A stretch of DNA of 63,229 bases, counting the filler, from Bonamia ostreae (Eukaryota), in NCBI GenBank assembly GCA_040357525.1. It is 29 parts of 29 records of this genome, joined end to end, with 100 filler letters (N's around TTAATTAATTAA, not from the genome) between each part and the next. Parts side by side here need not be neighbours in the genome. Positions count along the whole stretch, not along the records: positions 6,593 to 8,688 come from JBDODL010001049.1; positions 8,789 to 10,884 come from JBDODL010001050.1; positions 10,985 to 13,078 come from JBDODL010001051.1; positions 13,179 to 15,272 come from JBDODL010001052.1; positions 15,373 to 17,465 come from JBDODL010001053.1; positions 17,566 to 19,656 come from JBDODL010001054.1; positions 19,757 to 21,847 come from JBDODL010001055.1; positions 21,948 to 24,036 come from JBDODL010001056.1; 21 more parts are not named here. One strand, given 5' to 3'. A model generated the notes under the pieces. It did no database searches. It saw nothing but the letters and a program-made list of their open reading frames with translations, and was not told the DNA's origin. A program made the translations under genes and the position numbers. Below, one piece after another: positions 6,593-58,896 of the stretch; position 1 is the first letter of the stretch; the number at the start of each line of letters is the position of its first letter.

Positions 6593-7787
6593 TTTTGCAA
6601 CTATATTAAATATTTTTATTGAATTTTATCAAATGTTTTGAAAATTCGATAAACTTTTGCCAAGCGTTAGCTTCAAACGTCAATTTTCCGACGTTGACCG
6701 GCGGCAGTTGCAGAAAATCGCCACACAGAACTAATTGAATGCCGCCGAAAGGCTTCTCATTCGATCTCATTTTCCGCGCTATAAAGTCCAATTTGTCGAA
6801 AATAACTCCAGATATCATTGAAATCTTAAATTTCCGTTTAAAACTTCGTCGATTATTAAGATTTTAGTCGACATCCAACGAGAGTAAACTTCCCTTTTCT
6901 TTCTTATGTTCTTTACAAGTTTTTCGGGTTGGCCTTTCCCGAACCCGATTCCGGCCCAACTTTACTTAAAATTTGGTCCAACCTGTGAAGCGTTCTTCCA
7001 TTCAAGTTGAACGCGGCGAGTCCAGTCGACGCTGTCACGTGGACTTTTAGTTTTCTTTGTTTCAAAACAGCGTGAATTTCTTTTATCAAAACGCCTAAAT
7101 TTTTAAAATTGATCAACAAAACTTTTTCCAGTACCGGCGCAACCTGTGAAGAAGACATTTTTGCCTTCAACAACTTGTTTTAGAACGTTTTTCTGTTGAT
7201 CTGACAAAACTAGGTTTTTCAGCTTTTGCCCAATTTCCGCCATTTTCCCGTCTTTTTTGTGTTCTATCCTTCTCGGCCTTTTAAAAGGAGTGCTTAAAGC
7301 CATCGGCTTTTTAGCCGAATTGATATTGTCGCTGTAGTTTATCTTTGTCGTAGTGTTTTTTCCATGATCAGAATTTTTCCTTTTTGGTGTTTTTTGATCC
7401 GTTTTTATCGTTTTGGCGAGATCTTTTCTGTGAAATTTTTCGCCTCGATAACTGATTTTTTCTAGCCGCGGTTGGTTTGGATACGGCTTCGATCTCGCTA
7501 GTTCTGAAATGAACTTGTTTTTCAACACTTTATTTTCACTAATTTTTCGTTTTAAACTTGTACACTGGGAATTTTGAGCACAAGTTCGATCTCGACTTTT
7601 CTTTGTATTTGAGTTTTTTCTTTCTTGTGATCGCTTTGTTCTTCGCTTCCAGAATGTTTTCTTTCGATGGGCTCATGTACTTTTCCCTCGAAGCTGATAA
7701 AAGCTTTTCGGATATTGCTAGAAATTCGTCGCTATTGGCGTTTCTAAACCCTGTTTTCGGGGTGTCTGTTTTGGCAATTCCGCTCAT
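6593..7787 (-). CDS. PIF1: Pif1-family 5'-3' DNA helicase (3' truncated)
   Basis: FFTGCAGTGKS, TASTGLAA, TLHSWAGIG, LIIDEISM, PFGGIQLVLCGDFLQLPPV restored by introns 7095-7122 (28 nt), 6960-6982 (23 nt) and 6825-6844 (20 nt). Confidence 0.95.
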
Positions 7788-8788
7788 CCGTCGATTTGAA
7801 GTTTAAGTGAAGATATATAGTGTTGTTTTAATATGTCTAAATTTGTTGAGATTTAATATGGATTGTTGAAAAGTTAAAACGATGTTATTTTTAATTTCAG
7901 ACGGGAATTTTTAGTTATTTTTATAACTTTTGCCGACTACAGAATGTCGAGCAATTAGTGCAGGTCGAAATCCTATCTCTTTTTCGACTTGTTCCTCGAT
8001 TATTATCGCTATAAGTGTGGGCGCAGCTCCCGCGAAAACATCCTCCTTCTGTACTATCCAGTCCCTTTCGAGAGATTATAAATAATCCTTCATTCTGACC
8101 TTCAAAACTAGTCTTATTTTGCTGAGTTTGTTCTGTTATTGTTTTTTGTAATAATTTTCTGTACTCCCCAAAGCACCTTTATTTCTTGTTTGATTTTTTG
8201 ATTTGCCGCCTCTCTGATGAGAGAGAGTGTCAGAGATGTAGTCAATCAAATGCGTAGGCGTAACCGACACAATGTAAATTTTTAAACTGGAGGAGATATT
8301 GCAATTGACTGTGCTTCGGATAAAAAACGTTTGTTTTATTATCTACAAGAAATTTTTACTCTTTCCGTTTTTGGGAAGAGAAAAACTAATTCCAAACTTT
8401 CTTTTGAGTCTAACTCATTCAGTTTTATTGTTGTGCTTCTTTTGCTTGAATATCATGAATTTGTTTTTTCTTTTGGAATCTATGTTCCAAATTTTTTTCA
8501 GATTAGTTTTTTTTCAGATCTATGTTCCAATTCTTCGTTGTATTTTGCACTTACGGTTATTACAAAACCGTCTGCGTACGCGATTATGTCGTTTTATTAT
8601 AAAAAATTTGACGTTTCACAACTATGGATGAAAAATTATTATCTGTATGAAATTGATTTCTGTTGAAAATTAATATCGGTATCTATTGNNNNNNNNNNNN
8701 NNNNNNNNNNNNNNNNNNNNNNNNNNNNNNNNTTAATTAATTAANNNNNNNNNNNNNNNNNNNNNNNNNNNNNNNNNNNNNNNNNNNN

Positions 8789-8955
8789 AATTTTTTCCGC
8801 CATTTTTAGCAAAATTTGTTTTTACCGAATTTATTTCAATTAATTTTTTCCGCCATTTTTAGCAAAATTTGTTTTTACCGAATTTATTTCAATTAATTTT
8901 TTCCGCCATTTTTAGCAAAATTTGTTTTTACCGAATTTATTTCAATTAAATTTTT
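8789..8955. repeat. Tandem repeat, 53-bp unit x3 (probably intronic)
   Basis: CCGCCATTTTTAGCAAAATTTG unit begins at 8797, 8850 and 8903. Confidence 0.95.
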
Positions 8956-8959
8956 CAAA

Positions 8960-9618
8960 TAATCGACTTATCGAAAAGGCCCTTAAATGCGGCGAACCAT
9001 TTATAGTTCACAAATACCACGACGGAATCCTGACCAATTTCAGTTATTTGAGCTCGAAAGCAAAAGAACGTCGCTTTTTCAGAATGGACAAAGCAGAAAA
9101 CCGCGACATTAAAGACGTCATGAAAAAATACGCGCGTTATCGTTTATCCGACGGCATTCCTTCCATTATCGTCTTAATGCACAAAACCGGAAACGAAATT
9201 CTGATCAACGAAGCAGATCGCGTCGGGTTCGACCAAATTTTTTAGATTTAATTTTTTAAATTTTAATCTCCAAAATCTTTCCATTTTTAGAATTCCTGTC
9301 GCCTGTTTATGCGACAGCGATGTCGACCCGTCGCGGATAATGTACGTTATCCCCGGGAACGATGACAACGAGCCATCTGTCAGGTACGTCATGGAAATGC
9401 TCTCAAACGCCATTTTAGAGAAAAAGAAAAATATTCGATTTTGGAGGAAACTGATTGACATTCAGAGAAAAGAGCCGAAAAAGCTTTATTCCCCGAACGT
9501 AAAACCAAATTTGTCGTTAAGAAAGGGTTTGACTCAAATTGAAATGCTCAACCCAAAAATCGTTTTTACAAATTTAACTCGTTTTTTATAATAGAGACCG
9601 AAAAGAAAAAATGATTAA
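8960..9618 (+). CDS. MRPS2: Mitochondrial ribosomal protein uS2m (5' truncated)
   Basis: GILTNF...P..IIVL...EADRVG/IPVACLCDSDVDPSRIMYVIPGNDD: organellar/bacterial-type S2 signature split by a GTTC..TAG intron. Confidence 0.85.
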
Positions 9619-9913
9619 TTTATCACAACTTCTTTTCGCTATTATTATTTTAAAAACACGAAAGAATGCAACAATTTTAGACTATTTTTAAGTTCAACGT
9701 CGTCAAATGGCTCGTCGCTAATTTTTAATGACGATTCTTTTGGCGAAAAAACGGACATTTCTTCGCTGAAAATTGCAAAAATAACTTTTGAAAATCCTTT
9801 TCGTCGTCGTTTTCATGTTTAATGAATTCGAGATATTTGTCCAAAATGTCAAAAAAAGATCTTTTTTTTTTGTATTTAAAATTGTCGATAAAGTTTAAAA
9901 TTTAGTTTTGAGC

Positions 9914-10165
9914 TTATTTAAACTTTGAAGAATGGCTGTCCGGTTCGTTATAAATTTGAAAATTCGTGTTTAAACTGAGCACTCTTTCGCCGTTTGGCAG
10001 TTTTTTAGAATAGAACAATAATTCGTCTCCAAATTTGTTTCTGATCGATTTGGCTATTTTCGCCGGAAAATAAGACAGATTTCTTTTGGTCGCTTTTCTG
10101 TAAAAATAAAAAAGTAAAATGGCTCCCGCTGATATTATTATGGCTCCAAACGCCCTTTTCTTCAT
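9914..10165 (-). CDS. Small hypothetical protein with N-terminal hydrophobic anchor
   Basis: ORF MKKRAFGAIIISAGAILLFYFYRK; divergent from TOP3B; probably continues across an intron. Confidence 0.4.
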   Translation of the reverse strand: MKKRAFGAIIISAGAILLFYFYRKATKRNLSYFPAKIAKSIRNKFGDELLFYSKKLPNGERVLSLNTNFQIYNEPDSHSSKFK

Positions 10166-10426
10166 TAAATTTATATCGGAGATATAAAAGCTTTTCGATT
10201 TTGACGTTAAAAATGGGTTTAGCCATATTTATTAGTTGTTTTTCACATAAAATGATCAGTTTTGATCAAATAGCAATTTTTTTACATTTTTTACATAATT
10301 TGGTTTTTGGACCTTTTTCTGTGTTTCTTTAATTATTTTGATTTGCCGATTTTTGTTTTCATGTTCTTCAGTTTTATAAATCGGGCTAAATATTTTTCAC
10401 AAAGCTTAACAAAATAAGCTTTAAAA

Positions 10427-10884
10427 ATGGCCTCGAACATTGCCTTGATTGTGGGAGAGAAACCAAGCGTTGCTCTCTCAGTAGCAAAAGCCCTTTCGAA
10501 CAACAATTTCCAAAGCAAAAAGTCGTTCGCAACACCAATTCACGAATTCACTGGCAGTTTCCAGGACAAAAGGACTGTTTTCCGATGCACTTCGGTGACT
10601 GGACATGTTCTCAACATCGATTTCCACCCCAAATACAGGAACTGGACCGACACCGAACCGCGAGAACTTTTTACGGCCAAAACAGAGAAGAATCCGGCGG
10701 ACAAAAATGGCAAAATTTGCAAACATTTGCAAATCGCTGCTAAGAACGTCAAATATCTGATTCTTTGGCTTGATTGTGACCGAGAAGGCGAGAATATTTG
10801 TTTTGAAGTGATCGACCAATGCCGTTTTTCGATGGTCAATTATTCTCCAAAGGTTAATTTTAATAAATCTTTATATTTGCAATA
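10427..10884 (+). CDS. TOP3B: DNA topoisomerase III beta, N-terminal TOPRIM domain (3' truncated)
   Basis: VGEKPSVA, TSVTGHV, LILWLDCDREGENICFEV. Confidence 0.9.
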
Positions 10885-10984: not shown

Positions 10985-13078
10985 TATTACGCAATAATCT
11001 TTTCCTATATTTGTTACGTTTTTTTATTTCTTGTTTAATACTATTATTCCACCAAATTTTACCAAATTTATTACAAAGCTTTATTTTCTTTATTTTGCAA
11101 TGTTTTTCTACAGCATTTCTATAAATTGAAATAAGTTTTTCATAAATTTCATTTATATTTTTACTTTTAGAGCAAAATTTTAGAAAACTAGTTAAATTAT
11201 CCTCTAATTCTTTATTGTACTCATTTATATTTACATCATTCCAACAAATCCTTGTTTGTGGACAATTTTTTAAAACTTTGTTACATATTATATTAAATTT
11301 TATTGGTAAATGTTCACTTCCTATATATTCGAGACATTTTATTTTAGAAATCTTTAAAGAACCGATTTCTTTAGTAATTATAAGATCAACTGTTGATTTT
11401 TCATTAAAATTATTAATTAATGTTGTTAACTTATTTACATGATTTATTGATTTGTTTTCAATTAATGCTTTGTATAGATTTAGTCCATTTTTATTGTTTT
11501 TACTTACAGACCATTCTTTATGTTTAGAATTAAAATCTCCTAGAATAACCGAGTTTTTATCAAAGCCAATATCAATGAACAAATTTTCAAATTTTGTTAC
11601 TTTTGATGGAAAAACATATACGTTAAATACCTTTAAATAATTATTATTATGAAGTTGTATTTGTATTCCTTGAATTTCAAAATTAGACAATTTACTGTTA
11701 TTCAGATGTCTTAGATTTATTAAGCATGAATTAATTTTCATCCTCACAAGTGTTATTAAACCACCTCCTGTTTTATTCTTTCTTTGATACTCATACATAT
11801 TGTATCCATTAAATTTATGATTATGATTACAGTTTAACCATGTTTCCTGAATACAAACAATATCAGGCTTTTGTTCAGTTATTAAATTTTTTATTTCATT
11901 TATATTTTTGTTTAAACTTCGTATATTTATAGAAATTACTTTTAACATTGCATCGTTTNNNNNNNNNNTTTTGTTACTAAAATCATATTTTTGAAAAAAT
12001 TGTGTAAGAACACTGTTCATAAACAACTCAATTTTTTTTCCATTATTTTCATTGTTTTTTCAGCAATTTTTATAATATCTTGTTCATTTAAATTTTGATA
12101 TATAGATTTTTCGGCTTTTTTATGAACTTTCGTTTTTTTATTAATTTTTTGTTTCACTATAACCTTATTTTCATACTTGGGTTGTTTATCCAAAAATTCA
12201 TCCTCAGACTCAATATGAATTTGTTTATTAAGATTGTGTTCATTTTTAACTTTACGAATTTTTTGGGATATTTTAAACTTTTTTTTAGCTTCAGTTAAAA
12301 CTTCTTGATCAAACATACGAGTTTTATCTTCAAAACCATCTTTTAATAACCACTTGTTTTTCGTAATAATATTATGTTGTTTAAATTTACACTGAAATGC
12401 GTTAGCTTTGTGGTTTTTGCCACAGTTTGCACATTTTAGATTTGATTTTTCTTTACAATCTTTCGACTTGTGGTTTTTAGAACAAAATCTACAAACTGTG
12501 TTTGTGTTATAACACATTTCAGCTGTGTGTCCAAACTTTTGACATCTGTAGCATTGAATGATATTTTTTTTAATGTACCTTGATATCTTAAAATTTCTTT
12601 GGCATACTGTAAAACTTTTTTGTGCTAACAATGTTTCAAAAGTATCTTTATCACACAGGTTTATAAAACATGTACTGAAAATTGGATTATTTTTAAGAGG
12701 TTTAAGTGTAACGTTACTTATTTTTACATCTTTTTCATTAAAATACCTCTTAAAATCTTCTTCTTTTACAAATTTCGGTACATAATGTATTACAATTTTG
12801 TACAAACTATGATTGTTGTCCACTATTATAGCGTCTTTACCAAAAAATTTTTTTACGTCATTTGTTTTTTTAGCTTCTAACTTATCAATCTCATTTTCAA
12901 AAAATACTCTGATGTCACCGTATGGCAATACGTCTGCATTAATCGCTTTTTTAAAAGCTTGTGACATGTTAGAGCTCAATTTAAAGCAATTGTTGTATTG
13001 GAATTTATTTTCAACATTTTTAATAATTAACGAACAAAAGTTTTGTTCGTTGAATTTTTTATACATGTCTTGAGGATT
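10985..13078 (-). mobile_element. Non-LTR retrotransposon (APE-type LINE): ORF1 with three CCHC knuckles (13066-12017) and ORF2 endonuclease (12020-10985, truncated before RT)
   Basis: CYRCQKFGHTAEMC / CRFCSKNHKSKDC / CANCGKNHKANAFQC; APE motifs SINIRSL, DIVCIQETW, ILGDFNSKH, GSEHLPI, WWN. Confidence 0.92.
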
Positions 13079-13178: not shown

Positions 13179-13447
13179 TACAACAGCAAAAACGATTGCT
13201 TTGACTTTGCGGACACCGAAAATGCAAAAGTCTCCGAAGTGATCGATTTCCACAAGAAAAATCTCGAAAACGCAGAAAAAATCAATTTGAAACAAGTTAA
13301 TTTTCAAGTTTTGAAAACTTAAATAAGAATGTGCGCCATCTTCACGTTTTCATAGAAGACAACCAAAACGGTTCTCCGATAACTTTTTTGAATTCGATCC
13401 GTCTCTTCGGGCGACTCTTCGAGCAACATCACACGGAATACGAGTAA
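13179..13447 (+). CDS. PITH-domain protein C-terminus (TXNL1/PITHD1-like)
   Basis: Removing 20-nt intron 13308-13327 gives INLKQVNFQNVRHLHVFIEDNQNG...SIRLFG; missed by the ORF track. Confidence 0.8.
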
Positions 13448-16064: not shown

Positions 16065-16940
16065 GAAAAGAAACTGAATTTCAAGACCTCCTGGATTTGG
16101 CTCGTGAGGCACTGCAACTATATTTTGATGGATTGTTTCCTCCAAACAATTTTGAAACTTTTCTACAAACTGAAAGGTCGTCAATTGAAGGGAGAGGAAC
16201 ACATTTTAAACCAGAGGAGCGGAGGAAATTGTTTCCAGGTACATATGATCACAGAATATCTAGTCATCACTTCGTATTCATTAACTAAAAGTGCGTATAT
16301 ATGAGCATATTAACTATCTTGCAAAACTACTTTTCAATGTTTTCGAAGGCTATAAACAATCTACAATATGTACATGCAGGTCGCTAAATTATCGTTTGAA
16401 GTGAAATCTAAAACAATTCTTTTGTGTGCGTTATAATTATATGAGGAAATTGATGAACATTGTTTTGATATTGTAAACTTATATTTCAATTCCAAAGAAA
16501 GTGGAAAGGTAACTTCTGAAGACTTGGATATCACGCTGTTGTATAAAATCATACGAAACTATGGCGACTTGCCCAAGCCAGGAAACGGCTGGGGGAAGGA
16601 ACCTCGCCCATACGAAAAAGAAAAGAGTGACGACATAGAACGAGTTCGATATTACAGGAATAAATTTACACATAAATCGCAAGGATCTTTGGATGTCACA
16701 GCAACAATTTGGTTAGATTTGGCTGAGGTTTGTTTTTCTAACCTACTCTACAATTTCGCTGGATTCATTTAATTTTATTTACGCTAAATAATTTAAGTCA
16801 CAGGATATTGCATTATATGCAAGATTTTCTTTTTTAGGCTATTGAGAGATTAAGTGACGGTGATCTTAAAGGAAAAGTAAACGAGGTTTCGAAATCCTGT
16901 TCTGTGTTCCAAACAAGTATTCAAGATAAAGTAGAAAAAG
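16065..16940 (+). CDS. DZIP3-like HEPN domain exons (host gene fragment)
   Basis: Exons 16065-16238, 16498-16727, 16838-16940; LFPP, SEDLDITLLYKIIRN, GWG, DDIERVRYYRNKFTH (R-x4-H). Confidence 0.8.
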
Positions 16941-17597
16941 GTTTAAAACAAGAAGGGAGTTGACCAAAATGCAGTAATTGAGACATTTTGAAGTAGTTCT
17001 TTGTACGTATGTGAACTTATAAAAGTTCATAAAAACAGTATTTCTTCACAACTGACAAAATCATGCTGTTTTGAAATCCTTCATACACATATTTTATCAC
17101 ATAGAAGTTTTCATGCTGATTCCTTTTTCTAAATCTTATTACTTACCAGAAGAATCCTCTCATCGTACGGAAGATTCTGCAAAGTGTCAGATGTAGTCTT
17201 AATACATACTTTATCAACATATTGTTTGCATACATAATCTATTTGCTGAAGGAATTGTATCATGTATGCTTGTGCAATTATAAATGTTTTTGTACATTTT
17301 GCAGTCAGCACTCAGCAGTATTATATAGGACAGTGATTACATATCTCTTGGTTGTATATTGTCTCTTTCGCGTGAAAAGTCTATATTGTTCCCAATTACC
17401 AGGTCTAAAATGTTTCAGAATTTTCGGAAAAGTGTTACTTCCGATATGAGTTGCGTCTTTGCTAANNNNNNNNNNNNNNNNNNNNNNNNNNNNNNNNNNN
17501 NNNNNNNNNTTAATTAATTAANNNNNNNNNNNNNNNNNNNNNNNNNNNNNNNNNNNNNNNNNNNNCTTCATCTTTCATGCATGGTATAACTGAACAG

Positions 17598-18695
17598 TTA
17601 ATATTCCAATGGAAGTCCTGAATTGGGGAAAGGATGGTATTGAAAGATTTACTGCATACCTTAACTTTGGAAAAGAACCAGTTTATCACACCAGTGGAAT
17701 GATTGTTGGCTGTGCAGGAGCAGGAAAGACAACTTTAATCAACCGCTTGCAGGATTGTTCATTAGGAGAAATATTAAAAGTTAAAACAACAAAGGGAATT
17801 GAAGTTCATCCTGCTATTTTCAAAGTGAACAATAAGCAACTACAAGGTATTACGATGTAGTTTTTTAAAAATATTTTTGTTTATAAATCTTGGAAATTTC
17901 CTGTGCACAGAATGATGGCTTTCTTTTTTATTTTAGTGAATAAAGAGAAAACTGTGAAATATTTCAAAATTCCGCAAGTCAATATTCTTGGCGTTAACTT
18001 CCCTATCGAAAAAGAAAAAACACACAATGAATCAGTTTCTCGTCAAGATGATTTACAAAGCAATACCGAAGTGACTGCTACGAATGCATACACAGAAACA
18101 GAGGGGGGTAGTTGTCATCTAGATAATCCTGTTCTTCAAACAAACAAAGTATCCGAGAACCCGAACACTGAGAAACAAACGCGTCAAGAATTGCAATCAT
18201 CTCTAAACCTGGGGAAAACTGAACAACGCAAGATGCCCATGAAGACGCCTTCAAAATATTCATTAAAATCACTTCTCCAAACTTTTGACAATGTAACTTT
18301 TCATGGCGAAAGGAGTGTTCAGTATTTAACTTTACTTGATTTTGCCGGTCAGTCTGCTTACTATGCATGCCATCAGATTTACCTTAGTGAAAGAGCCTTT
18401 TACATATTAGTCATGGATATGTCCAAAGACTTAAATGCAGTGGTAGGTGAAGAGGTATGCGACCACAGTCATACAGTGTTCGAGACATGGCGATATAGAG
18501 GTATATACTATGATTCAATCTAATTATTTTCTCTGATACCTTTTTTAATTAACCCATATAAGTATTATATTTAACGATATGTATTTTTAAATCTTAGATT
18601 TTTACGCCTTTTGGATGAAATCTATTCATACATATAGCAGTCGAAATGCACCGGTTATTCTTGTGGCTACGCATGCAGAGGATAAAAGTGATAAG
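17598..18695 (+). CDS. Roco-family ROC GTPase exons (host gene fragment)
   Basis: GCAGAGKTT P-loop, TKGIEV, LLDFAGQSAYYACHQIYL, FWMKSIH..PVILVATH; exons 17598-17846, 17937-18500, 18598-18695 with GTA donors. Confidence 0.85.
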
Positions 18696-22178: not shown

Positions 22179-23192
<1,014 letters not shown>

Positions 23193-25433: not shown

Positions 25434-26221
25434 TTAATCTCTTTTTCTTTTTCCGTTGCTCGCAAAAACAAAATCGGGCAATTTGGATTTTGATATGTAA
25501 TTTACTTTTACAGACATTCCTTCTGTTTTTGAATTGAAATCGTTAATATGTTTTACAAACGCTTTCACCGCCTTTATAAAATTTCAAATTGTAAATTTTT
25601 AAACCGGAACAATATTGATTTTCTTCCTTTTGTTGTTTCGATTATGTTTGATTTCGTTTTTGTCAATAATGATTTTGGATCCGATGAAAAACGAAATATT
25701 TTTTTGCTTTTCCAAATCGTGATTGAAACTTTGAGGGAATGGGACCAATTTAAAGTATAATATCTCTTCTAATGTTCCAACAAATCTTTTTTTTGGAGTT
25801 CTTTATGTCAAATAAACCTTCTAATGCGACTTTCGATCCAACCGAACCAAGCAGTGAAATCCTCTTCAATAAAACAAGTTCCAGAGATTTGGAAATAGTG
25901 TTTGTGGTTTTTGAAGAATGTATTTGCTTCAATCAACTTTTCGAAAATATCGTCTTTGCCAGATTTGAATATTTCTCTGGCTCGACTTATTTCTTCGCGG
26001 AGACTATTTTTAAGGTTAAAAACAATGCGAAAGTTGAGAATGTAACGTTGTATGTCGAGTTTTGAGCCGGGTATGACGGAGTTATTATTGGCATTCTGTC
26101 GTACAGATTTGCCTTTTTGCGAAATGATATTTTTGACGATTTGAAGTAAAAGTATTTTTTTACAGAAAAATGAAAATATTTTTGACATTGATCAAATAAT
26201 AAAATCAAAAAATATAAAAAA
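25434..26221 (-). CDS. PAP: Poly(A) polymerase, C-terminal part
   Basis: MPIITPSYPAQNSTYNVT, FF..HKHYF, WFGWIESRIR, LPDFVF; several short introns. Confidence 0.9.
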
Positions 26222-26399
26222 NNNNNNNNNNNNNNNNNNNNNNNNNNNNNNNNNNNNNNNNNNNNTTAATTAATTAANNNNNNNNNNNNNNNNNNNNNNN
26301 NNNNNNNNNNNNNNNNNNNNNTTTTATTTTTTTTTATATTTTTTCATTTATTCTAAATTTTTGTTTAAATTTTTGTCCAATCCGCAAAAATTTAGAAAC

Positions 26400-28300
26400 A
26401 ACCATCAAAAAAAAATAGCAAACTCAATCGACTTCACAAGCGCAAAAAGAAAATGCTTCGATTTGTACTACGACGACATGGAACAATGCGTCGCAACCAA
26501 AAACGACTTAATCATCGAATTCAAAGAAAAAGACCAACCCTTCGAACACGAATCTCTAAGCGAAATCCGCTTTCACGTCCCAATCGGCGAAATGGACAAC
26601 TTTCTCTCCAAATCCCAAAACGACGATTCTGACGCCACTTTTTTGTCCGCCAGCCAATTGTCTGAACGCATTCGCAATCGAGCAGATCTTACTTTTAGCC
26701 CCAAAAACGCAGTTGTGAAATTTGCGAATCAGCAATTGATAACGCCTCGCGGTCGTTACGAAGTCGGGTTGTCCAGAGACACGCTATTTTTGCACGGAAA
26801 GACGTTTAGTTATAAGTCAAAATTGCGCGATTTTTACAAAATGTTTTTGTTGCCGAACGACGACGGGCACTATTTGGCTGTTTTTAATTCGATTCAAATT
26901 TTTTAATTCGCAAAATTTGGAAAAAATTTTGTAAATCAAATCTGCAAAAAGGTGAATTTGAAAAAGCCTTTAAATTTTGGAAAAACTTTTTATCACTTCG
27001 TTATTATAAAATTTGGAGAAGATAGCCAGATTACCGTTTCTGTTGACATTCCACAGTTTAAAAATTGCGATTTTACAATTTTAAAAATTTTTAAAAATTT
27101 TAAAAGATTTTGAGGAAATAAGAAAAGATTTTTAGTAATGTTAAAAAAATAAGAAAAGAGATTGAGGAAAAATATGACGGCAAATTGAGCCGAGAAATGG
27201 AAGGGCCGTCTTTCAGAATTACAACGAGAATATTTAAAACTCTTTCCAACACAAAAGTTTTTATGCCCGGTTCCTTCGAAAACACGACTGAGCAGAAATA
27301 TATTCGTTGTGCAATGAAGACTTCTGCGGGATTTTTGTATCCGATGGAAGCCAGTTTTGTTTTCTGTCCAAAGCCGGTTGTTTATGTCCGTTTTTATTTT
27401 TTTTGTAAATTTTTGCGATAATTTGAAAAATTTTAATGTTTTTGAGATAAATCTTTTTTCGTATTTTTGCGATAATTTGAAAAATTTTAATGTTTTTGAG
27501 ATAAATCTTGTTTTCGTATTTTTGCGATAATTTGAAAAATTTTAATGTTTTTGAGATAAATCTTGNNNNNNNNNNNNNNNNNNNNNNNNNNNNNNNNNNN
27601 NNNNNNNNNNNNNNNNNNNNNNNNNNNNNNNNNNNNNNNNNNNNNNNNNNNNNNNNNNNNNNNNNTTTTCGTATTTTTGCGATAATTTTAAAAATTTATT
27701 TTAATTTAAAAAGAACACAGCAAAATTGAATCTGTGAGCTTTTTAAGATTGTTAAACAGGTTTTTGGATAAATAATATTTCCGTTTCGAAAAATCAAAAA
27801 TCTGCAGAAAATTAAAAAAAATTATTAAAGTATGAGCAGCACAAAAATGTTTGATCTGGCACTGACATTAAAGAAAGACCATAAGAATGCGAGAAAAGAT
27901 GCAAAAATTGTTTTCACTGGAATTGACAAAAGAGAATTTCCAAATCTTTTCAAATTTTTGGCTTCCAAAAATCTACGAATTTTAGACAAAGAAATTTACG
28001 TTTTTAATAAATTTTTTAATTTAAAATTGATATCAATTTTTTAATTTTTTAATTTAAGGAAAAACGATTGAACCTCTCGGACGCGGGACAAAGAAGCTGT
28101 CGAATAAGCGGCGCAACAAATGTCATTTTGCCCAACGGCAACAGCGATACTTCTTCCGACGAAGATTTTGACGAAACGAAAACTTTGGACCAACTCGACA
28201 GAAAACTGTTTTTACATTCAAAATTAGACGAGAAACTACTGAAAATATCGAAAACGAAGAAATATCAAGTAGCAGCGAAATTGACGTTGACGACATTTAA
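26400..28300 (+). CDS. SSRP1: FACT subunit SSRP1/Pob3 (5' truncated; ends in acidic tail without HMG box)
   Basis: LSEIRFHVP, TPRGRYEV, LHGKTFSYK, GFLYPME..FVFCPKP, KMFDL, FTGIDKRE; last intron 28208-28227 (20 nt). Confidence 0.93.
27410..27690. repeat. Intronic tandem repeat, 54-55-bp unit, at least 3 copies plus assembly gap
   Basis: GCGATAATTTGAAAAATTTTAATG at 27415, 27469 and 27524; resumes after the 100-N gap. Confidence 0.9.
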
Positions 28301-28661
28301 TAAATGCCGTTTTACAAATTTTTTGTCAATAAAGATTTTATCTCTATTTTATTTTTTGCGGATATGTCGACAAATCTCTATTTCTATCGTTTCAAGATAT
28401 GTTGTTNNNNNNNNNNNNNNNNNNNNNNNNNNNNNNNNNNNNNNNNNNNNTTAATTAATTAANNNNNNNNNNNNNNNNNNNNNNNNNNNNNNNNNNNNNN
28501 NNNNNNATTTTTTTTAACAACTACTATATCATTTTTTATATTTTTTAAAATTTTTTTAATAAATTAGATATTTTTTTATATAATTTGCTAAAATTTTTTA
28601 ATAAAAACGACATTTTTTTATCAAACTTGTAAAAAAGAGCCAACTATTTATTAAACTCTCC

Positions 28662-29445
<784 letters not shown>

Positions 29446-29557: not shown

Positions 29558-30575
29558 ATGGCGGAAAAAGTTTTTTGTATTTTGATAACAAATAATTTAG
29601 GACGAGGAAGTTTTGGACGATTTTTTTAGCGAAATCGGCGATATCGAACAGAACAACGAAATCGACCGGATAATTAAGGCGATGACGCTGGACCCGATAA
29701 ACATTTTGGATATTCCGTACCATTCAACTTCTTCTGAAATCAGAAGAAGGTACAAAAAACTTTCTCTCAAAGTTCATCCCGACAAAGTCCCCGAATCGAA
29801 AAAAGAACTGGCCAAAGAAGCTTTTTTCAAATTGGGAAAGGCTTATAAAGACTTGTTGGATGACGAAAAACGAAAAGATCTAAACGAAATTGTAAATTTT
29901 GCTAAAAAGTTTTTGGAGAAAAAATACAGTTCGGCAAAGTTTTTTGTCTTTTTTGATGAACTAATTTATAAAACAAATTTTTAACAATTAAAAATTGCGA
30001 ACAATTAAAAAACAAATTTTTAACAATTAAAAATTGCGAACAATTTAAAAACAAATTTTTTACAATTTAAAAAAAAAGAAAAAAATCGATAACAGATTTT
30101 ACAGGCGAAAAAGACGTTTTTTAATTTACAGTAAAAGAAAGATTTGAAAAGAGAAGTAGCAAAAATATTAATTGATCGCGCATGGAAAAATCGAATGATA
30201 AAAAAGATGTCTGAAAAGTACGATGAACGAGCTGCGAAAGAAAGAGAAGAATGGAAAAACGACCAGAAGGAAAAATCTGATCATCAAAGAAAATGGGTTG
30301 AAGACAGGTTTTTTTGCCATTTTTAATTTTTGCTCTCGGATTTTAAAATTTTAGCTTTAAAATAGCTCAGAATATTTAAAATTTGATCTTTAATGGATTT
30401 ATAAAAATGAAGATCAAAACGAGTCAACAGCTGGAAGAAGTTTAAAGCTAACGTAAAGAAAACGTCGAGACGCAAAGTTGTCAAAGGGGTCGGTCATAGG
30501 GTAAAATCGAAGAAACAAGAAAATGGCAAAGACGAAAACAAAATCAAATTTAAAAAGTTCAACAGGCGAGTCTAA
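29558..30575 (+). CDS. DNAJC8: J-domain protein DNAJC8/Spf31-like
   Basis: FFSEI..IE, YKKLSLKVHPDK, W.E.R..RVNSWKKF; multiple GTT introns. Confidence 0.8.
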
Positions 30576-31812: not shown

Positions 31813-32772
31813 ATGAAGTTGGAAATCCTGCTCTTTATAACTCTTGACTGTTGCTTAGCGCAAAGTTTAGTTAGAAGAAACGTGATATTCGAGAAAGTAA
31901 AAGATATTTCTATTGTAAATGGCAAATGGACTGCGGTCACTGTTTTGGATTTGAATCCTTATCAAACCTTGATTAGTATCTTGAAAGCCAACTTAGTACA
32001 GTATACGTGCAGTTGAATAATACGGTATCGAGGGAATACCATGACCTTCCAGGAAATTTTACAAAAATTGCAAACGATCCCATCTTAATGTCATATCTCT
32101 TAAAATGACTACAAGTAAGAGAGATTTGTAATGGAAATAGCAAACTTTCAAGTAAATCGAAAACATATGGAACAAGCAATCAGTGGGATATGTTATATAT
32201 ATCAACGAAATAAAAGAGCTGTTATTCCAATCGCAGGAAAAGCACTTTCCTTTCTTTTTGGCACTTTAGACGAGGCGGACCTTGAAACCATTAAAACTAA
32301 TATTCGGAGAATCTCAGTCGGACAAGAACACCTAAAGCACGTAGTTAGAGAAAGCATTACGTTGGTTAAAGATAATCAAGAAAAAATTAAGAAAAATCGG
32401 CAAACTATCAATAACATCATAGACGTTCTTATCAAAACAATAACAGTACAAGGGGAACTGGAAAGAACTGTAGAAAACATACAAAGATTGGATAATATTT
32501 ATATCCGTTTTGATCGAACGATTAGCAGTTTGGCTGAAGTTATTTCGATTGCACGAACACATTTACAACAAATTCATTTACAATTAAACATGTTATCGTT
32601 AGGACATCTTTCTCCAACTGTAATCTCGCCGCGCGATCTAAGACAACTTTTGACTGGAATTTCTGATAATTTAAGCCCGGAATTCAAATTGCCCTTTGAT
32701 ATTTACGACTGATTTATGGTCGTAGTATAAAGTTTTACTATGCACTACACTCATCGAGAGTGAACGTTTAAT
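31813..32772 (+). pseudogene. env: Decayed env gene (baculovirus-F/errantivirus-like class I fusion protein) of an LTR retroelement, probably host
   Basis: Signal peptide MKLEILLFITLDCCLA; furin site RNKR then AVIPIAGKALSFLFGTLDEADL fusion-peptide pattern; heptads; GHLSPTVISP; frameshifts/stops near 32010, 32106 and 32710. Confidence 0.85.
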
Positions 32773-35053: not shown

Positions 35054-36240
35054 ACTGGTTATAAAAATTTTGGATTTTATCTTTTCGATCATAAAACTCA
35101 AAATTTCGTCCTTTCGCGTCAACAAAAGTTAACCTCGTTTCTAATCAGAACCTCTTCCTTTTTGGGGTGAACGTTGGCATCCACAAGTTTTCTGTCGATT
35201 TTGGCCGAGAAGTAAAAAAAAGTCTTAAATTTGTTGTGGACAGAGTTTTTGTACAGCGTTTGAACGTCGGAAGAAAGTTTCTTCCACGAAACCAGTCTTT
35301 TGTTGACGAAAAATATGTGGATTGGTTTGTCGATTCTGCTTTTTGTGCGTAAAAACGTGAGATCGGTTTTTGAAATGCATCCTTCAAAGTCGATGGCGTC
35401 GTTGCCGTCTCTTATTTGGATCAGTTTTTCCGATATTTTCTGTCCTTGAATTGGTCTTGGAAACCGTAAAATAGTTTTATCATCGTTAACGGGGTCGGGC
35501 CATTTTGTTTCGTTAGCGGTGAGCAGAGCCGGTTTTTGTTGTGAGATTGTTTGGCGTAAATGAAGTTTATTTTTGGATTGTCGATCGCGTATCTGTTTTT
35601 GAAATTTAAAATCACTTTTTCACGATGTCGAGGGACCGGGTTTTCTCTTCTTTCAAGGAAAAACTGAAAATCCGTTGTCGGAGTGGAATGTTATAAAACA
35701 GATTTTCTACCGTTATTCGAGTTCCATTCAGTCCAGCTGACACTTCTATCGGGGAAACCAATTTGCCGTTAACGAAAACGCCTTTGCTGGCCAATTTCTG
35801 GCGATTTTCAAATTATAAGAATCGAACATCGTTTTTGGTTTTAGAGACGACTGTTATTTTGGAAACAGCCGAAATGCTTGCTAACGCTTCTCCTCTGAAC
35901 CCAAACGTCTTAACGTTCTGAAATTTTAATAATCAAAATTTTGTTTTCGGTTGAACCTCAATGTCGTCATATTTGGTTATTTTGCTCGTTGCATGTCTCT
36001 CACATAACAACTCAAAATCCTTTGCTTCGATGCCATGGCCGTTATCACTTACAGACAGAAATTCAAGTCCTCCGCCATCGATCTCGACCTTAGACAAGCA
36101 GGAAAAAGAACCTTTATTTCGGAAGAACCTGCGTCCAATGAATTTTCTACCAATTCCTTGACAACGGCGGATGGCCGTTCCACCGCTTCGCCTGCGGCTA
36201 TCATTGCTACGACATTTTCCGACAGTCGAAGAATTGCCAT
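35054..36240 (-). CDS. MLH1: MutL homologue MLH1, N-terminal ATPase/transducer (3' truncated)
   Basis: [76 protein letters not shown]; at least 5 introns of 23-39 nt. Confidence 0.88.
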
Positions 36241-38478: not shown

Positions 38479-39153
38479 ATGCGCGAAATAATTTCCATTC
38501 ATGTCGGGCAAGCTGGTGTCCAAGTCGGAAATTCCTGCTGGGAGCTTTTCTGCAGAGAACACAATATCGACGAAAACGGAAAGCTCAAATCGGTAAAACA
38601 TTTTACAAAATATCATAAAAAACTGTCTTACAAAAATGTCTTACAAAAATGTCTTATAAAATATCGCAAAAAAACTTTAGGACGTCGTAGACGACAAAAC
38701 ATTCACGACCTTTTTCTCGGAAACAGAAGGCGAAAAATATGTTCCGAGAAGCGTTCACTTTGATCTCGAACCGAGCGTCATCGACGAAGTCAGAAACGGT
38801 CCGTACAAAAATCTCTTCCACCCCGAACAGCTCATCAGCGGGAAAGAGGATGCGGCAAACAATTATGCGCGCGGACACTACACTGTTGGAAAAGATTACG
38901 TCGATTCTTGTCTCAATCAAATTCGCAAAGTGGCCGACAATTGCAGTTCGTTGCAAGGATTCCTGATTTTCAGTTCAGTCGGCGGTGGAACGGGTTCTGG
39001 TTTTGGGTCGCTGTTGCTTGAGCGACTTTCTGTAGATTATAACAAAAAGTCGAAACTCGCTTTCACGATTTATCCGTCTCCGCAAACGTCGACTTCTGTC
39101 GTAGAGCCTTATAACTCTGTTCTTTCGACGCATTCGCTGCTTGAACACAGCGG
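38479..39153 (+). CDS. TUBA: Alpha-tubulin (divergent; 3' part not in contig)
   Basis: [54 protein letters not shown]; intron 38593-38680. Confidence 0.97.
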
Positions 39154-52852: not shown

Positions 52853-54552
52853 ATGGCATATTCTTTAATGAACGCAAAATTTAAAAGTGGGAATTTTGAA
52901 GACATCAAAACAAATAAAACTAAAAAAAGAGATTTGACAATCGATTTTATTCGCTGCGTCAGCGTGTTTTTAATCATTTTCGTCCACATTACTATCACAA
53001 CTAGAGAAATCCAACACCCGAGATTAGAAGAACGAGAAGTTTTTATCGGAATATTGTACGTCTACTTGCAGTTTGGAATTCCGATGCTCTTTTACATTTC
53101 AGGTCGTTCGGCCGCCATGTCCCGGAAATCGGAAGACGGATTCAAAACAGTTCTGACCAAATCAGTAAAGCTAATTTTGCCCGTTTTCCCCGCTCATTTT
53201 CTGATAGTCATTCCGACGGGGTATCTTTCGAGTGCTTACAGCCGCGCGATTTGTGGCAATTTGCACGAAAGGAACTTCTTTCGATTTTATTGGAGTTATA
53301 TTTTGGATTGGGTCGAACATCCTTTCAAATGTGGTTTTTGGTGGTTGTGGTTTCTCGTTGTACTTTGGATTGTATCCATTTTTTCTTTACCAGGTTTGAT
53401 GGCTCTATATGGTGAAACGATCAATAAAAAAACGGTCGGTTGTTGTTACGCTGCGTTGTTTGTCTCTTTGATTATTGTTTCGATTTTTTTAAAAAGTTTT
53501 TTTTGCCTGAAAATTATGAATTGTTTTTTTCCAATTGTATTTTTGTTAACGTTTTCAGTTCTTATTTACATTCTGGTGACCGACTTTAAAAATTACATTT
53601 AATGAATAGATTGGTTATTGCTGTTTAATTCAGCGTACTTTGGCATTTTAATTTGTTTTCCATTGCTATCACCTTCTGTAAATCTTGGAAACAGAATTAT
53701 TACAAAAAGCAAAATGTTCATTCCTTGCATATACGGATTCGCAAGTTCCATTTTGTATGTTATTGTCACATCTGTCTTGATAAATCAATTTTATGAAAAT
53801 GTGAAACAAATTTATTCAATTTTGACGTTTGTTCATTACACTTTCTTCTATTCACAAGTTTTGAAATCGTAAAAAAAGGGATTTGTAGACGTCAAAAGAA
53901 TGAAAATAGAAAGCACACATTTTCTTCTCGAATTTGCTACAGTTGTGTTGTCAATCGCCATTTTAGTTTTTGGGATAAATTTGAATAATTTTAAAACGGG
54001 AAATACATTTGCTTTTCCCAATTTTAAAAGTACTTTTCTCAGGACTACTTTTATTCTCTGCAGTTGGATCTGGTTCTAGCATAATATTTACAAACAATTA
54101 TTTTTATTTGTTACAAACTTTGTTATTTATGAAGACGAAAATTTTTTACATAAAATTATTTAAAATTTGACAGGCTTTATGGACTGCAATCTGGGATCAG
54201 ACACAGATTAACCGACATGAAACCAAATTGGATTCTAGATCACATGAATAAAAGCTGCATTGTAGTGTACGTCTTTCACTACTTTTTTATTGCAGCTATA
54301 AGTGTTTTTAACAAAATCATAAAACAGAGAGTAATCGTGATACCACTGAAACTTGGCCTTCTTTCCAATATTTTGGTATTGGTGGTATTTACTTATCCAC
54401 TTTGCTCTCTTTCTTATATCACCGTTTATTATTTTGTTATAAAAAATTTTCTAAACACTGATTATTGTTATTTGAAAACGGAAACTGCAAATTTTACAAA
54501 ATTTGCAAATATTTGTCTTCTAATGGACAAAATCCAAAAACGACAAATCTTC
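52853..54552 (+). CDS. Acyltransferase-3 (OafA/OpgC-like) polytopic membrane O-acyltransferase
   Basis: RDLTIDFIR...LIIFVH, PMLFYISG, WWLWFLVVL, S.IVVYVFHY; several short introns incl. 53858-53878. Confidence 0.8.
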
Positions 54553-55473: not shown

Positions 55474-55670
55474 GAATGGAAAATTTTAAGAATCTGTATC
55501 GCGGCAAGACTTTTTATCTCAGTGAAGGCACAACGCATGTTAAAGCTGATTTGCAAAACATGGGCATAGTTTAAGCTACTCTCATATAACAGATAGTACA
55601 TGTTTCGGACTTTGAAAACATTGGAATAATCGATTTTTACGTTTTGCGGAGAGCGAAGGAACACGGCGAA

Positions 55671-56418
55671 ATGGTCAGCAAAATCAACTCTGGCCGCGAC
55701 AAGACGGCGCTTTGTTCTCTTCGCTCGAAAGCCATTATTTCCAAAATTCGGAAAATCGACAAAAAAAAGTCGGAAGTCGAAAATGCGGAACTGAAGAAAG
55801 TGATTAACAGGAAAATCGCTGTGATGACTTTAAGTGGTTTTGCCGTTGCCATTAATCGCAATTATACAGTTTTGATTTAGGACTTTGTAAAATGGCATTT
55901 TAAATTTGATTTTATCGTTTTTAGAATTGTCTGAGATAATTCAGAACTTTAAAAAATCGTTTTCGAAATCGGTTGTTAACGCGAAGAGGCTAAATTTGAA
56001 GGAAACGCATTTCATTTCTTTGAATTCTGTTGACAAAAAATTCGAACCGATTATAAAAATCTTCAGAAAAGATCGGTTTCAAAAATTTTGATTATAAAAA
56101 TTTTATTACAAAAATTTTGCGGTGAAAATTGCGTCGATTAATTTTCGTTAAATTTAGTAACGGGAACTGCACAACGCCAAAAATTTACGAAAAAGCCAAA
56201 AATTGCATTTTTTTAAATCCGGAAAGAAAAAAATCGAACAGAAAAAGAGCACAAAAAGTTGGTTATTGTGAAATCTGTAACGTTTCATTTGTTAAAATCG
56301 AAACGGTTTTTGATTTAAATTAATCGATCAAAAGCATTTGAAATCTTCCGGCCATTTAAAGCAACTCACAAAATCAAAATTTTATGAAAAATTAGACAAT
56401 GTACTCAACAAATTTTAA
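55671..56418 (+). CDS. DBF4: Compact Dbf4-type zinc-finger protein (Cdc7 activator)
   Basis: KVGYCEICNVSF.KIET/HLKSSGH after a 29-nt intron; upstream HFISLNSVDKKFEPI resembles motif M. Confidence 0.7.
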
Positions 56419-56974
56419 ATTAGTAAATAGCAAAATTTTTGTTTTCCGATTAACTGAAACGATAGCACATAACTTTCTACTTTTGGTCTTTTTTTGTTTA
56501 TGTTCTAAAATCGACTTTCTTTTATGTTGCCATTCTCAAATTCTGTCATGTTAAAGTTTTCTTTAGTTTTGCTATTGTAATGTGTTCTTTGCTTTGGTTT
56601 ATTAAGCGCGAAGAGGTTTTTATTTGGCGATTCGATAAAATTGTAATTTTTTTGTTTTTTTTTTAGATTTTACAAAATTGTAATTTTTTTGTTTTTGTGA
56701 TTTTATAAAATCGTAATTTATTTGTTTNNNNNNNNNNNNNNNNNNNNNNNNNNNNNNNNNNNNNNNNNNNNTTAATTAATTAANNNNNNNNNNNNNNNNN
56801 NNNNNNNNNNNNNNNNNNNNNNNNNNNGATTCATTAAAAAAATCGATTCGTTAAAAAAGCAATATTTGCAAAAATCGACCATTGCAAAACAAAATAAATT
56901 TTGACCAAATCCAAATTTCAGTCATTTTTTGACATTTCATAATAACAATAAATTAAACTTAAAACAAATATTAT

Positions 56975-57823
56975 ATGACGTTAACATATTTTGTTGCAGG
57001 CGCGTCGAGAGGAATCGGATTGGAATTTGTTCAACAGTTGTTAACAGTTTGCTTCTCTCCATTTTTTATAAAAGTCGAAGAACAAAGTTATCGCGGGCTG
57101 CAGAAAACCCGAAAGCTTAAGAGACCTAAAATCAAAGTACCCAGAAAACCTGCACACATTAACTTTGGACGTGAATTCCGATTCATCCATAGACGCTGCT
57201 TATGAGAATCTGAAGTCGAAAGCAACAAAAGACCTCAAAATCGACGTCTTCGTACAAAACGCGGCCGTCGCTGATTTTGGCGATAAAGTCTTCGACGTAA
57301 AAAGAGAGACGGCGAGGCACGTTTTGGAGACGAACTCGATTTCACCATTGATGGTCTCGAGGAAGTTTTTGGATATGTTTGCTCAGCCGTCTTCCAAATT
57401 AGTGTTTATTACCTCTCGAATGGGTTCGATTTCAGACAATTCGTCTTCTTCCGCTGTTTTCTACAGAATGAGCAAATCCGCTCTAAATATGCGTTGCTTC
57501 TTTAAATTGCAGTGACAAAATGTCTGTCGATTGATTTGAAAGAAAAAGGGGTCATTGTTTTGGCACTCCATCCGGGTAAGCTTATTGTTGTAGCATTACG
57601 ATTTTCCAGTAAAATAATTTTCAGTATTTTTGTGGTAACTCCGAATGACGAATTATAATGCGATTTTCTAGGATGGGTGCAAACAGAAATGGGGATGATG
57701 GGAGGACAAGCTCCTCTGACAGCGGAACAGAGCGTGAAAGGAATGATCAACGTTATCTCGTCCGTCGGGCCAGAGAAAACGGGCCGTTTTTTAAATTGGA
57801 AAGGAGCTGAAATTGAGTGGTGA
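56975..57823 (+). CDS. Short-chain dehydrogenase/reductase, C-factor (CsgA)/sniffer-like
   Basis: AGASRGIGLEFV, NAA, SRMGSI.DN, YRMSKSALNM, LHPGWVQTEMG; three introns incl. 57493-57512 (20 nt). Confidence 0.93.
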
Positions 57824-58093
57824 AAAGTTTGTAACACAATATGCACTGTTAATTCTACATAATTTTTAAAATTGCTGTTCTGCAAACATTGACGCTTTTC
57901 TGCAAACATTGACTTTTTCGCTTTTGTCATCGACTCTGTTTTCGATTCACAAATTTTGTTGTCGCAAAAACAAAAATTTATTGAAAATAGTCTTTAGCGG
58001 ATATTCTTTATAACAAAAAATTTATACAAACGGGATATAAAACTGACCATTAAAGCTTAAAGAGTATTAATATTTTTGGTATAAAATCGTAAA

Positions 58094-58896
58094 ATGGATT
58101 CTGTCAAAGAAAAGAATGTGAACATTTTTAACGAAGAATGTAATCAACTTTTATTAAAGGCGACAATTGCGGCAAAAAATGCGAAACTAAAATGGTATCG
58201 GTGGACATTCCCAAGTTCCGTGAGATTATAATAATGTCGACAAATTGCGACCATTGCGGAAACAGAACTTCGGACTTACAAGGAAGCAGTTATATCCACG
58301 AAAAAGGAAAAGAAATTAATCTCAAAATGACTACAGCCGAAGATCTTAAACGAGAAGTTGTTAGAGTTTCAAAATATCTCATTGCTTTTACAAAAATATC
58401 GTACATTTTCAAATTTTTACTATCGCAAACGACTAATAAAACGCTGATTAAAACCACTTTTTGCGAACAATAAAAATCCATTTTTTTGCGAACAATCCAT
58501 TTCAAATATTAAAAATCATAAAACAAAAATGTTAGTCATTTGCTATACAATTATAAAAGACCGATTCAACTGTTGTGTCAATTCCTGAAATTGAATTCGT
58601 CTCTTACCAGGGACCCAACATCGGTGAAATAACGACGACAGAAGGGCTCTTGATCAAATTCAAAGAACAAATCGAATCGATTTACAAACGAGAACTCGAA
58701 AACAAAAAACTGACCGAAAAATTAAAAAAGAGTTACCAAAAAAACATTTCGGACTTGAAAGATTTGGCCGAACTAAAAAAGCCATTCACAATGAACTTCA
58801 AAGACGTTTTGGGAGACGTTTATGTCGAAAAACTGAAAAACGACCAAAATTTAAAAATCGATTTTTTTGAAAGAACGAAAGAACAAAACGCGGAAT
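58094..58896 (+). CDS. ZPR1: Zinc-finger protein ZPR1 (3' truncated)
   Basis: CDNC..CET.M..VDIPKFREIIIMSTNCDHCG, DLKREVV, IPEIEF, TTTEGLL, FERTKEQN; 20-nt intron 58140-58159. Confidence 0.9.

Follow-up and report, generated by a model that had tools for sequence, protein, structure and literature searches.

Short segments with GT and AG ends that interrupt protein-coding genes of Bonamia ostreae are very probably genuine spliceosomal introns of this organism, removed by one splicing system whose signals lie off the eukaryotic norm. B. ostreae (Haplosporida, Ascetosporea, Rhizaria) is a parasite of flat oysters and is of relevance to the World Organisation for Animal Health (WOAH). The stretch analyzed, hereafter the window, is 63,229 bases long with a GC content of ~31% overall, and consists of 29 B. 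ostreae contigs of 2,065-2,098 bp each, ordered by length. Contigs are connected by N44-TTAATTAATTAA-N44 linkers (e.g., 2099-2198 and 4296-4395); as these joins are artificial, nothing can be inferred across them and gene order is meaningless. The intron pattern belongs to the genome as a whole, of which many contigs are represented here; it is not a feature spanning 6825-58159.

Twenty-nine introns were tallied, using RNA contigs, exact mapping of a public protein, continuity of hidden Markov model (HMM), Pfam or PDB alignments, and restoration of open reading frames (ORFs). An earlier note on this DNA, made from the sequence alone, had listed 14 introns. GT and AG ends on one strand were confirmed for 14/14 and support was obtained for 12, the remaining two being 5291-5322 and 53858-53878.

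RNA-supported introns in a UBE2K and a DnaJ gene

Read placement was carried out on a single contig (28507-30590), chosen for carrying four of the listed introns. Seven GT..AG segments of 20, 22, 22, 49, 70, 105, and 140 nucleotides (nt) are missing from the RNA contigs of runs X3 and X17, and their donors are GTTT in 7/7. In DNA run X1, a 1,433-nt contig (depth 11.6) aligns colinearly across the UBE2K region and retains the segments. Because the RNA contigs skip the seven segments and the X1 DNA is colinear, assembly indels and DNA-level excision are ruled out for them. Precise absence from RNA was observed for all seven introns covered by RNA contigs; the other 22 tallied introns lie outside the RNA cover.

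Four of the seven introns belong to UBE2K, on the minus strand. At 28776..28797 (22 nt, GTTTTC..TTTTAG) and 29144..29163 (20 nt, GTTTGT..TTTAAG) the segment is absent from the X3 RNA contig, with colinear X1 DNA at the former, and joints in the X3 RNA contig mark 28956..29025 (70 nt, GTTTTT..TTTTAG) and 29233..29281 (49 nt, GTTTCT..TTTAAG). The check by RNA that the earlier note had proposed was thus borne out, on this one contig, for 28776-28797 and 29144-29163, both skipped in RNA and retained in DNA. Two further listed introns, 29316..29336 (21 nt, GTTTCA..AACAG) and 29393..29421 (29 nt, GTTGAT..TTGCAG), are required for a 190-residue E2 ORF. The interval 29316-29421 is beyond reach of any RNA contig and run X22 has no placed contigs, so that the runs are uninformative on splicing there. 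Following removal of the four RNA-verified and these two introns, the UBE2K ORF comprises 190 codons in the standard code, encoding an E2 core with the HPN motif and a UBA-like tail. The coding sequence (CDS) extends from 29445 to 28662 and agrees exactly with the six introns in 784 bp claimed before. Its exons measure 24, 56, 34, 69, 118, 158, and 114 nt, which corresponds to 6 introns in a 573-nt CDS.

The remaining three RNA-verified introns are located in the DnaJ gene, on the plus strand: 29939..30078 (140 nt, GTTTTT..AAAAAG; joint in X3 and X17 RNA), 30116..30137 (22 nt, GTTTTT..TAAAAG; absent from the X3 and X17 RNA contigs), and 30308..30412 (105 nt, GTTTTT..ATGAAG; joint in X3 and X17 RNA, with the cut read 2 places to the right).

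Within the same contig, the X1 DNA depth of ~11.6 is interrupted by spikes of 279 (28507-28576) and 1,289 (30047-30116), accompanied by loose ends, which indicates that these AT-rich stretches are repeated elsewhere. Single-base differences between runs, as strains would show, were observed at 28615, 28663, 29756, and 30158.

Splice signals and lengths

The ends are GT and AG in 29/29 tallied introns. Donors are GTT in 25, GTA in 3, and GTG in 1, with GTTT in 19 and GTTTT in 15. Almost all eukaryotes carry a purine at intron position +3; here a purine was found at +3 in 4/29 only and the donors do not follow a GTRAGT-like consensus. T occupies +3 in 25/29 (86%), versus 44.1% of all GT dinucleotides in the window (p=3.4e-6), in line with the ~24 of 28 hand-tallied donors of the earlier note. 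In the subset that draws neither on the gene predictor nor on motif patterns, GTT was found in 17/19. Beyond this position the preference weakens: in a set of 27 introns, which was also used for the compositions given below, T was counted at +4, +5, and +6 in 17, 15, and 14 introns, respectively, and only +3 is strongly biased. GTTTGT was found once in 29, and the U12-type /RTATCCTT donor is not present among the tallied donors.

Acceptors are AAG in 16, TAG in 7, and CAG in 6 introns; GAG is not used (0/29). The last 10 nt before AG consist of 46% A, 39% T, and 9% C and thus hold no pyrimidine tract, as had been noted from the sequence. The 3′ halves, previously described as often A-rich, contain 45% A compared to 37% in the 5′ halves, so that the enrichment exists and is mild. 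A more regular feature is an A at -7 (21/29) or -8 (21/29), at either or both in 25/29. T predominates at -6 to -4, and a typical intron 3′ end reads AAATTTAAG.

Lengths range from 20 to 324 nt. The short introns (17/29, up to 31 nt) measure 20 (six times), 21, 22 (three times), 23 (three times), 28, 29, 30, and 31 nt; the longer ones (12/29) measure 39, 49, 59, 70, 71, 72, 88, 96, 98, 105, 140, and 324 nt. A floor near 20 nt, as proposed earlier, agrees with the tally, in which six introns are exactly 20 nt long, none is shorter, and nearer AGs are bypassed in four introns: at 16 nt in 30116-30137, 18 nt in 6960-6982, 12 nt in 29393-29421, and 9 nt in 35593-35623, where the AGs used give 22, 23, 29, and 31 nt, respectively. 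The bypass of an internal CAG in 30116-30137 is shown by RNA; in 6960-6982 an AAG is passed over. These cases are compatible with a lower limit either on intron length or on the distance from branch to AG.

The earlier note had proposed a distinct system of micro-introns. This part of the proposal did not hold up, as the 12 introns of 39-324 nt carry the same GTTT...AAG signals. Donor and acceptor features are shared across lengths of 20 to more than 300 nt, so that the tiny introns form the short end of a single continuous population, processed by one spliceosome. At least three of the longer introns contain repeats: a 55-nt unit present 2.9 times or more at 99% identity, broken by an assembly gap, in the 324-nt intron 27390-27713 (at 27409-27565), a 39-nt unit present 2.9 times at 92% in the 140-nt intron 29939-30078 (at 29958-30073), and 10- and 21-nt low-complexity repeats in the 98-nt intron 27056-27153 (at 27077-27147). 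These young tandem and low-complexity repeats suggest a short ground state from which introns have grown through local duplication.

Pairing of the U-run with the 3′ A-run in a hairpin was considered and rejected. Upon folding of 15 tiny introns, 10 gave 0.0 kcal/mol and the mean z-score was 0.25; tiny introns are unstructured, with a minimum free energy of about 0.

Introns supported by homology and gene models

For a MutL homologue on the minus strand, a representative search with one exon gave a best match of 61% identity over 81 residues; the organism's own protein was not returned, and the homologues were used for HMM construction. A local HMM was built from 34 homologues and every frame-compatible GT/GC-AG join was scored at four junctions, ignoring the +3 base. 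Best joins were 36089..36111 (23 nt, GTTCTT..TCTAAG; best of 71, 130.9 vs 122.0 bits), 35918..35956 (39 nt, GTTCAA..TTTCAG; best of 24, 116.8 vs 104.4 bits), the listed intron 35798..35827 (30 nt, GTTCGA..CGCCAG; best of 15, 96.0 vs 74.2 bits), and the non-GTT intron 35593..35623 (31 nt, GTGAAA..AAACAG; best of 6, 132.2 vs 127.0 bits, a narrow margin).

Three ORFs of DIM1 (rRNA dimethylase), on the minus strand, align to human DIMT1, and two junctions are residue-exact. Intron 22901..22923 (23 nt, GTTTTT..ATTTAG) is gapless at human DIMT1 residues ~101/102; at 22611..22632 (22 nt, GTTTTT..TTCAAG) the exons abut at 1zq9 residues 162/163. In PIF1, also on the minus strand, Pfam profile coordinates are unbroken across three listed introns (2-38 / 37-~73 / 74-111 / 111-156). 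The first, 7095..7122 (28 nt, GTTTTG..ATTTAG), lies directly 3′ of the P-loop codons, with profile positions 2-38 followed by 37-84 in the flanking ORFs. After the second, 6960..6982 (23 nt, GTTGGA..GTAAAG), the middle exon ORF begins at profile position 74, and at the third, 6825..6844 (20 nt, GTTTTA..TTTAAG), profile position 111 is found on either side of the junction. Protein searches at 'longer' lengths with the PIF1 exon and with the ZPR1 exon discussed below gave no match.

On the plus strand, the alpha-tubulin intron 38593..38680 (88 nt, GTAAAA..CTTTAG, non-GTT) has its junction after ...GKLKS, and alternative candidates at 38593-38680 insert or delete conserved residues. Four further plus-strand introns were placed by motif continuity. 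Moderate support was obtained for 13308..13327 in a PITH-domain gene (20 nt, GTTTTG..AATAAG), where the Pfam PITH match begins at the acceptor, and for two introns of a short-chain dehydrogenase (SDR) gene. Of the latter, 57493..57512 (20 nt, GTTGCT..TTGCAG) restores ...YRMSKSALNM|LTKCLSIDL...LHPG, and 57576..57671 (96 nt, GTAAGC..TTCTAG), in frame with stops, joins LHPG to WVQTEMG; a canonical-looking GTAAGC donor thus stands beside a GTTGCT donor in one gene. In ZPR1, 58140..58159 (20 nt, GTAATC..TTAAAG, non-GTT) interrupts the first Cys codon of CxxC; the spliced reading is CDNCG...CDHCG, and the Pfam zinc-ribbon match runs from profile position 11 right after the acceptor. The PITH, SDR, and ZPR1 junctions, of which 13308-13327, 57493-57512, and 58140-58159 had been listed, constitute weaker evidence.

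Public gene models contribute six introns. The exon ORF 26322-26903 is 100% identical to the NCBI entry 'FACT complex subunit ssrp1, partial [Bonamia ostreae]', which assigns the window to this species; an origin from a ciliate, a dicyemid, or a myxozoan was considered and dropped on this match. Oyster and mollusc metagenomes are among the public runs containing this DNA, in keeping with the assignment. The public SSRP1 protein P0001 (412 residues) maps exactly on contig 26322-28406 with six introns on the plus strand: 26880..26951 (72 nt, GTTTTT..AAAAAG), 27056..27153 (98 nt, GTTTAA..AATAAG), 27390..27713 (324 nt including a 100-N assembly gap, GTTTTT..AAAAAG), 27760..27830 (71 nt, GTTTTT..TTAAAG), 28000..28058 (59 nt, GTTTTT..TTTAAG), and the listed 28208..28227 (20 nt, GTTTTT..AATTAG). 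Donors are GTTT in 6/6 and acceptors AAG in 5/6. Micro-introns, such as the 20-nt one of SSRP1, are therefore already present in public B. ostreae gene models. These models come from funannotate, for which published transcriptome reads served as training data (PMC11069148).

Three probable introns were left outside the tally, all with GTT donors. The first, 26004..26023 (minus strand, 20 nt, GTTTTT..AAATAG), would belong to a poly(A) polymerase gene, at a junction between PDB-aligned blocks; the three shortest candidates have the donor of 26004-26023 in common. A search of the poly(A) polymerase ORFs against PDB gave no match at E<=1e-5 and was repeated at 0.05. The second, 61725..61746 (minus strand, 22 nt, GTTTTA..AAACAG), probably separates PDB-aligned blocks 94-180 and 193-318 of a CLPB/Skd3 homologue. 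The gene concerned (61303-63229, minus strand) encodes a CLPB/Skd3-type disaggregase with N-terminal ankyrin repeats and has several introns; two of its exon ORFs match solved chains of caseinolytic peptidase B protein homolog with E 1e-33 to 1e-36. The third, 9227..9290 (plus strand, GTTCGA..TTTTAG), is a probable intron of 64 nt, or of 19 nt from the same donor, in a mitoribosomal S2 gene, with Pfam position 172 followed by 170. The two listed candidates that were not supported are both on the plus strand and have GT..AG ends: the flanking ORFs of 53858..53878 (21 nt), in an acyltransferase gene, are without homology signal, and for 5291..5322 (32 nt), in a DHHC gene, an in-frame ATG at 5311 permits an intron-free start.

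Other contents of the window were recorded as follows. A contig of 24% GC (10986-13078) carries, on the minus strand, an endonuclease-reverse-transcriptase ORF of a non-LTR (long terminal repeat) retroelement and a 353-residue ORF without Pfam family. Animal-type domain families occur in plus-strand ORFs at 3-1154, 16437-16769, 17594-18520, and 32119-32709, namely Kringle (at cut-off), HEPN_DZIP3 (E=9e-14), AAA/Roc, and a weak Baculo_F; these contigs may belong to the parasite, or may represent host carry-over or transfers. A tRNA-Lys (UUU) gene at 59474-59549 (plus strand), in a contig of 24% GC, is the sole Rfam/ARAGORN match in the window.

Explanations, known systems, and significance

Motif searches were uninformative. 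A naive count of ORF restorations with at least 25 open codons gave 1869 for GT-AG versus 1400-6152 for eight decoy dinucleotide pairs. An ORF-chaining dynamic programme with codon log-odds yielded 188 GT-AG 'introns' versus 169-209 with six decoys, recovered only some of the true introns, and was dropped. Listing of frame-compatible GT-AG pairs gave 0-51 candidates per junction, and a Pfam-coordinate gap test allowing GT/GC/AT donors and AG/AC acceptors kept 3-25; with either listing, residue-level homology is still required to settle a junction.

Several observations weigh against the interpretation as introns with their own signals. The motif GTTT..AG of 20-23 nt occurs 181 times, versus 177.5 +/- 9.1 in doublet-preserving shuffles, and with AA at -8/-7 it occurs 37 times, versus 27.6 +/- 4.9. 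Motif counts alone are not above chance, and the case rests on RNA and homology. AAG acceptors are common, as the earlier note had stated, but not in excess over composition (A precedes AG in 41.2% of cases in the window; p=0.09), which weakens the idea of an AAG code; even so, the acceptors depart strongly from YAG, the rule in most eukaryotes. Lengths that are multiples of three (7/29) are not clearly depleted. The sample of 29 introns, drawn from ~12 genes within 63 kb, is small. The RNA type of run X3 is only a guess; X17, from another study, has a record as RNA-seq, but its cover is limited to one gene. Four junctions lean on motif continuity, and the six SSRP1 introns are calls of a transcript-trained predictor, with no independent proof of each site.

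An origin as assembly indels, or as devices introduced during annotation to bridge frameshifts of a low-quality draft, would be in keeping with a heavily fragmented assembly of 2-kb contigs with N gaps, and with naive ORF chaining, which yields equal numbers of 'introns' with decoy dinucleotides. However, an independent DNA run contains the segments (depth 11.6), RNA contigs of two studies lack exactly these, with ends GT..AG, and junctions are residue-exact compared to human DIMT1; we consider such an origin highly improbable. Excision at the DNA level, comparable to that of the internal eliminated sequences of ciliates, would suit the size range, which resembles that of short eliminated sequences. 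The joined form is nevertheless confined to RNA-type runs and not seen in DNA run X1, the segments end in GT..AG, and rhizarians are not known to have nuclear dimorphism, so that this explanation too has very little probability. Genuine splicing accounts for the features that were found, i.e., GT and AG ends, presence in DNA with absence from RNA, and restoration of the reading frame, as expected for the major spliceosome. A purine at +3 and a pyrimidine tract with a YAG acceptor, both normal for introns of the major type, are not the pattern here (purine in 4/29, AAG in 16/29).

In terms of recognition, the 5′ site consists of GU followed by U (25/29), usually a U run (GUUU in 19 and GUUUU in 15 of 29), instead of GUR, and any HAG without a pyrimidine tract serves as the 3′ site. 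We propose that the A's at -7/-8, which a short T-rich spacer follows, may represent the branch site, and that splicing would take place at the first downstream AG whose distance from it is permitted. The 20-nt floor could then reflect the minimal spans from 5′ splice site to branch (about 12 nt) and from branch to AG (about 7-8 nt). With the standard U1 5′ end, ACUUACCU, a GUUUUU donor would pair at only about 3 positions. Such poor pairing points to either a changed U1 5′ end or recognition by proteins combined with short-intron definition. No small nuclear RNA (snRNA) genes were found in the 63-kb window by Rfam, at gathering score or at E<=1.

The earlier note had suggested an altered U1 5′ end, U6 ACAGA box, or U2AF. 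A U1 whose 5′ end has changed to pair with GUUUUU, possibly along with changes in U6 or U2AF, would explain the rarity of a purine at +3 (4/29), the U-rich positions +4 to +6, and the limited pairing with standard U1, and has precedents in Entamoeba and Mastigamoeba (10.1101/2022.06.08.495308). In the same survey, however, U1 is of the standard form in Thecamonas, in five Mamiellales, and in 69 yeast species, all with atypical donors; remodeling is therefore not the default expectation. Moreover, strong bias is limited to +3, with T at +4 to +6 in 17, 15, and 14 of 27, and four non-GTT donors are in use, including GTAAGC. We regard a co-evolved U1 as possible but rather unlikely. With a standard or lost U1, the donor would be set by GU and an adjoining U-rich stretch, to which a TIA1/Nam8-type protein would bind, and by nearness of the ends; T-rich mutation pressure would account for part of the U preference. 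The scarcity of information beyond +3 and the acceptance of GTA and GTG donors by the same spliceosome agree with this explanation, as do the unchanged U1 of most atypical-donor lineages (10.1101/2022.06.08.495308) and the related mikrocytids, for which only U2, U4, and U6 are reported as identified (PMC10245619). On the other hand, T at +3 in 86% versus a background of 44% (p=3e-6) shows composition alone to be insufficient. We give a standard or lost U1 about an even chance. The broader proposition that B. ostreae, and perhaps haplosporidians generally, re-tuned the recognition of the 5′ splice site, through a U1 co-evolved with GUUUUU or free of U1 pairing, while keeping dense introns and a hard 20-nt limit, is put forward tentatively and may well prove wrong.

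Comparable systems are known. According to a survey in which atypical donors are counted in only six lineages, all intron-poor, Entamoeba has a GUUUGU donor and a U1 co-evolved to AACAAAC (10.1101/2022.06.08.495308). Entamoeba resembles Bonamia in being an AT-rich parasite with GUUU instead of GUR at the intron start and with unusual 3′ intronic sequences. Unlike Entamoeba, in which GUUUGU is near-universal, Bonamia has a GUUUUU-like consensus (GTTTGT in 1/29), and in contrast to this intron-poor organism its genes can be dense in introns (4-6), with lengths down to 20 nt. Ultra-short spliceosomal introns are shared with the mikrocytids Mikrocytos mackini and Paramikrocytos canceri, which likewise belong to the Ascetosporea; the 224 mikrocytid introns are described as all 16-17 nt long and highly conserved in sequence, alongside a drastically reduced spliceosome (PMC10245619). 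Those of Bonamia differ in measuring 20-324 nt, in their loose signals, and in being dense in some genes. Other tiny introns are reported from the Bigelowiella nucleomorph (18-21 nt), Stentor (15-16 nt), and Paramecium, and from myxobolid myxozoans and Dicyema, with medians of 22-27 nt and a reduced donor 'GTa' (PMC13644364). As in Bonamia, lengths in tiny-intron lineages pile up at a sharp lower limit and a pyrimidine tract is lacking; myxobolids and Dicyema also share weakly conserved A's just upstream of AG. Unlike myxozoans and Dicyema, Bonamia prefers GTT to 'GTa' and has a broad instead of a narrow length distribution.

In the B. ostreae genome paper, introns are called 'canonical', with a mean of 2 per mRNA; lengths, logos, and snRNAs are not reported in its main text (PMC11069148). 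The word 'intron' is absent from 4 supplementary files of that paper, and neither 'intron' nor 'splic' occurs in the B. ostreae transcriptome paper. A literature search, the scope of which excluded haplosporidian actin papers in subscription journals, returned no description of intron lengths or splice motifs for Bonamia or haplosporidians. The introns described here are of kinds already known, namely ultra-short introns and lineage-specific atypical donors.

For annotation, gene finders and RNA-seq mappers that rely on default minimum lengths of introns or on GTR models of the donor will produce errors in B. ostreae and its relatives, and the true number of introns per mRNA may exceed the published mean of 2. 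The sharp 20-nt floor, together with the bypassed nearer AGs, provides a measurable minimum for the B. ostreae spliceosome. A rhizarian that prefers GUU and has kept its introns would allow one to ask whether U1 co-evolved or proteins took over its role. If recognition of the 5′ splice site has indeed been re-tuned, B. ostreae would offer an independent, intron-rich natural experiment on the co-evolution of snRNAs and splice sites and on minimal spliceosome geometry.

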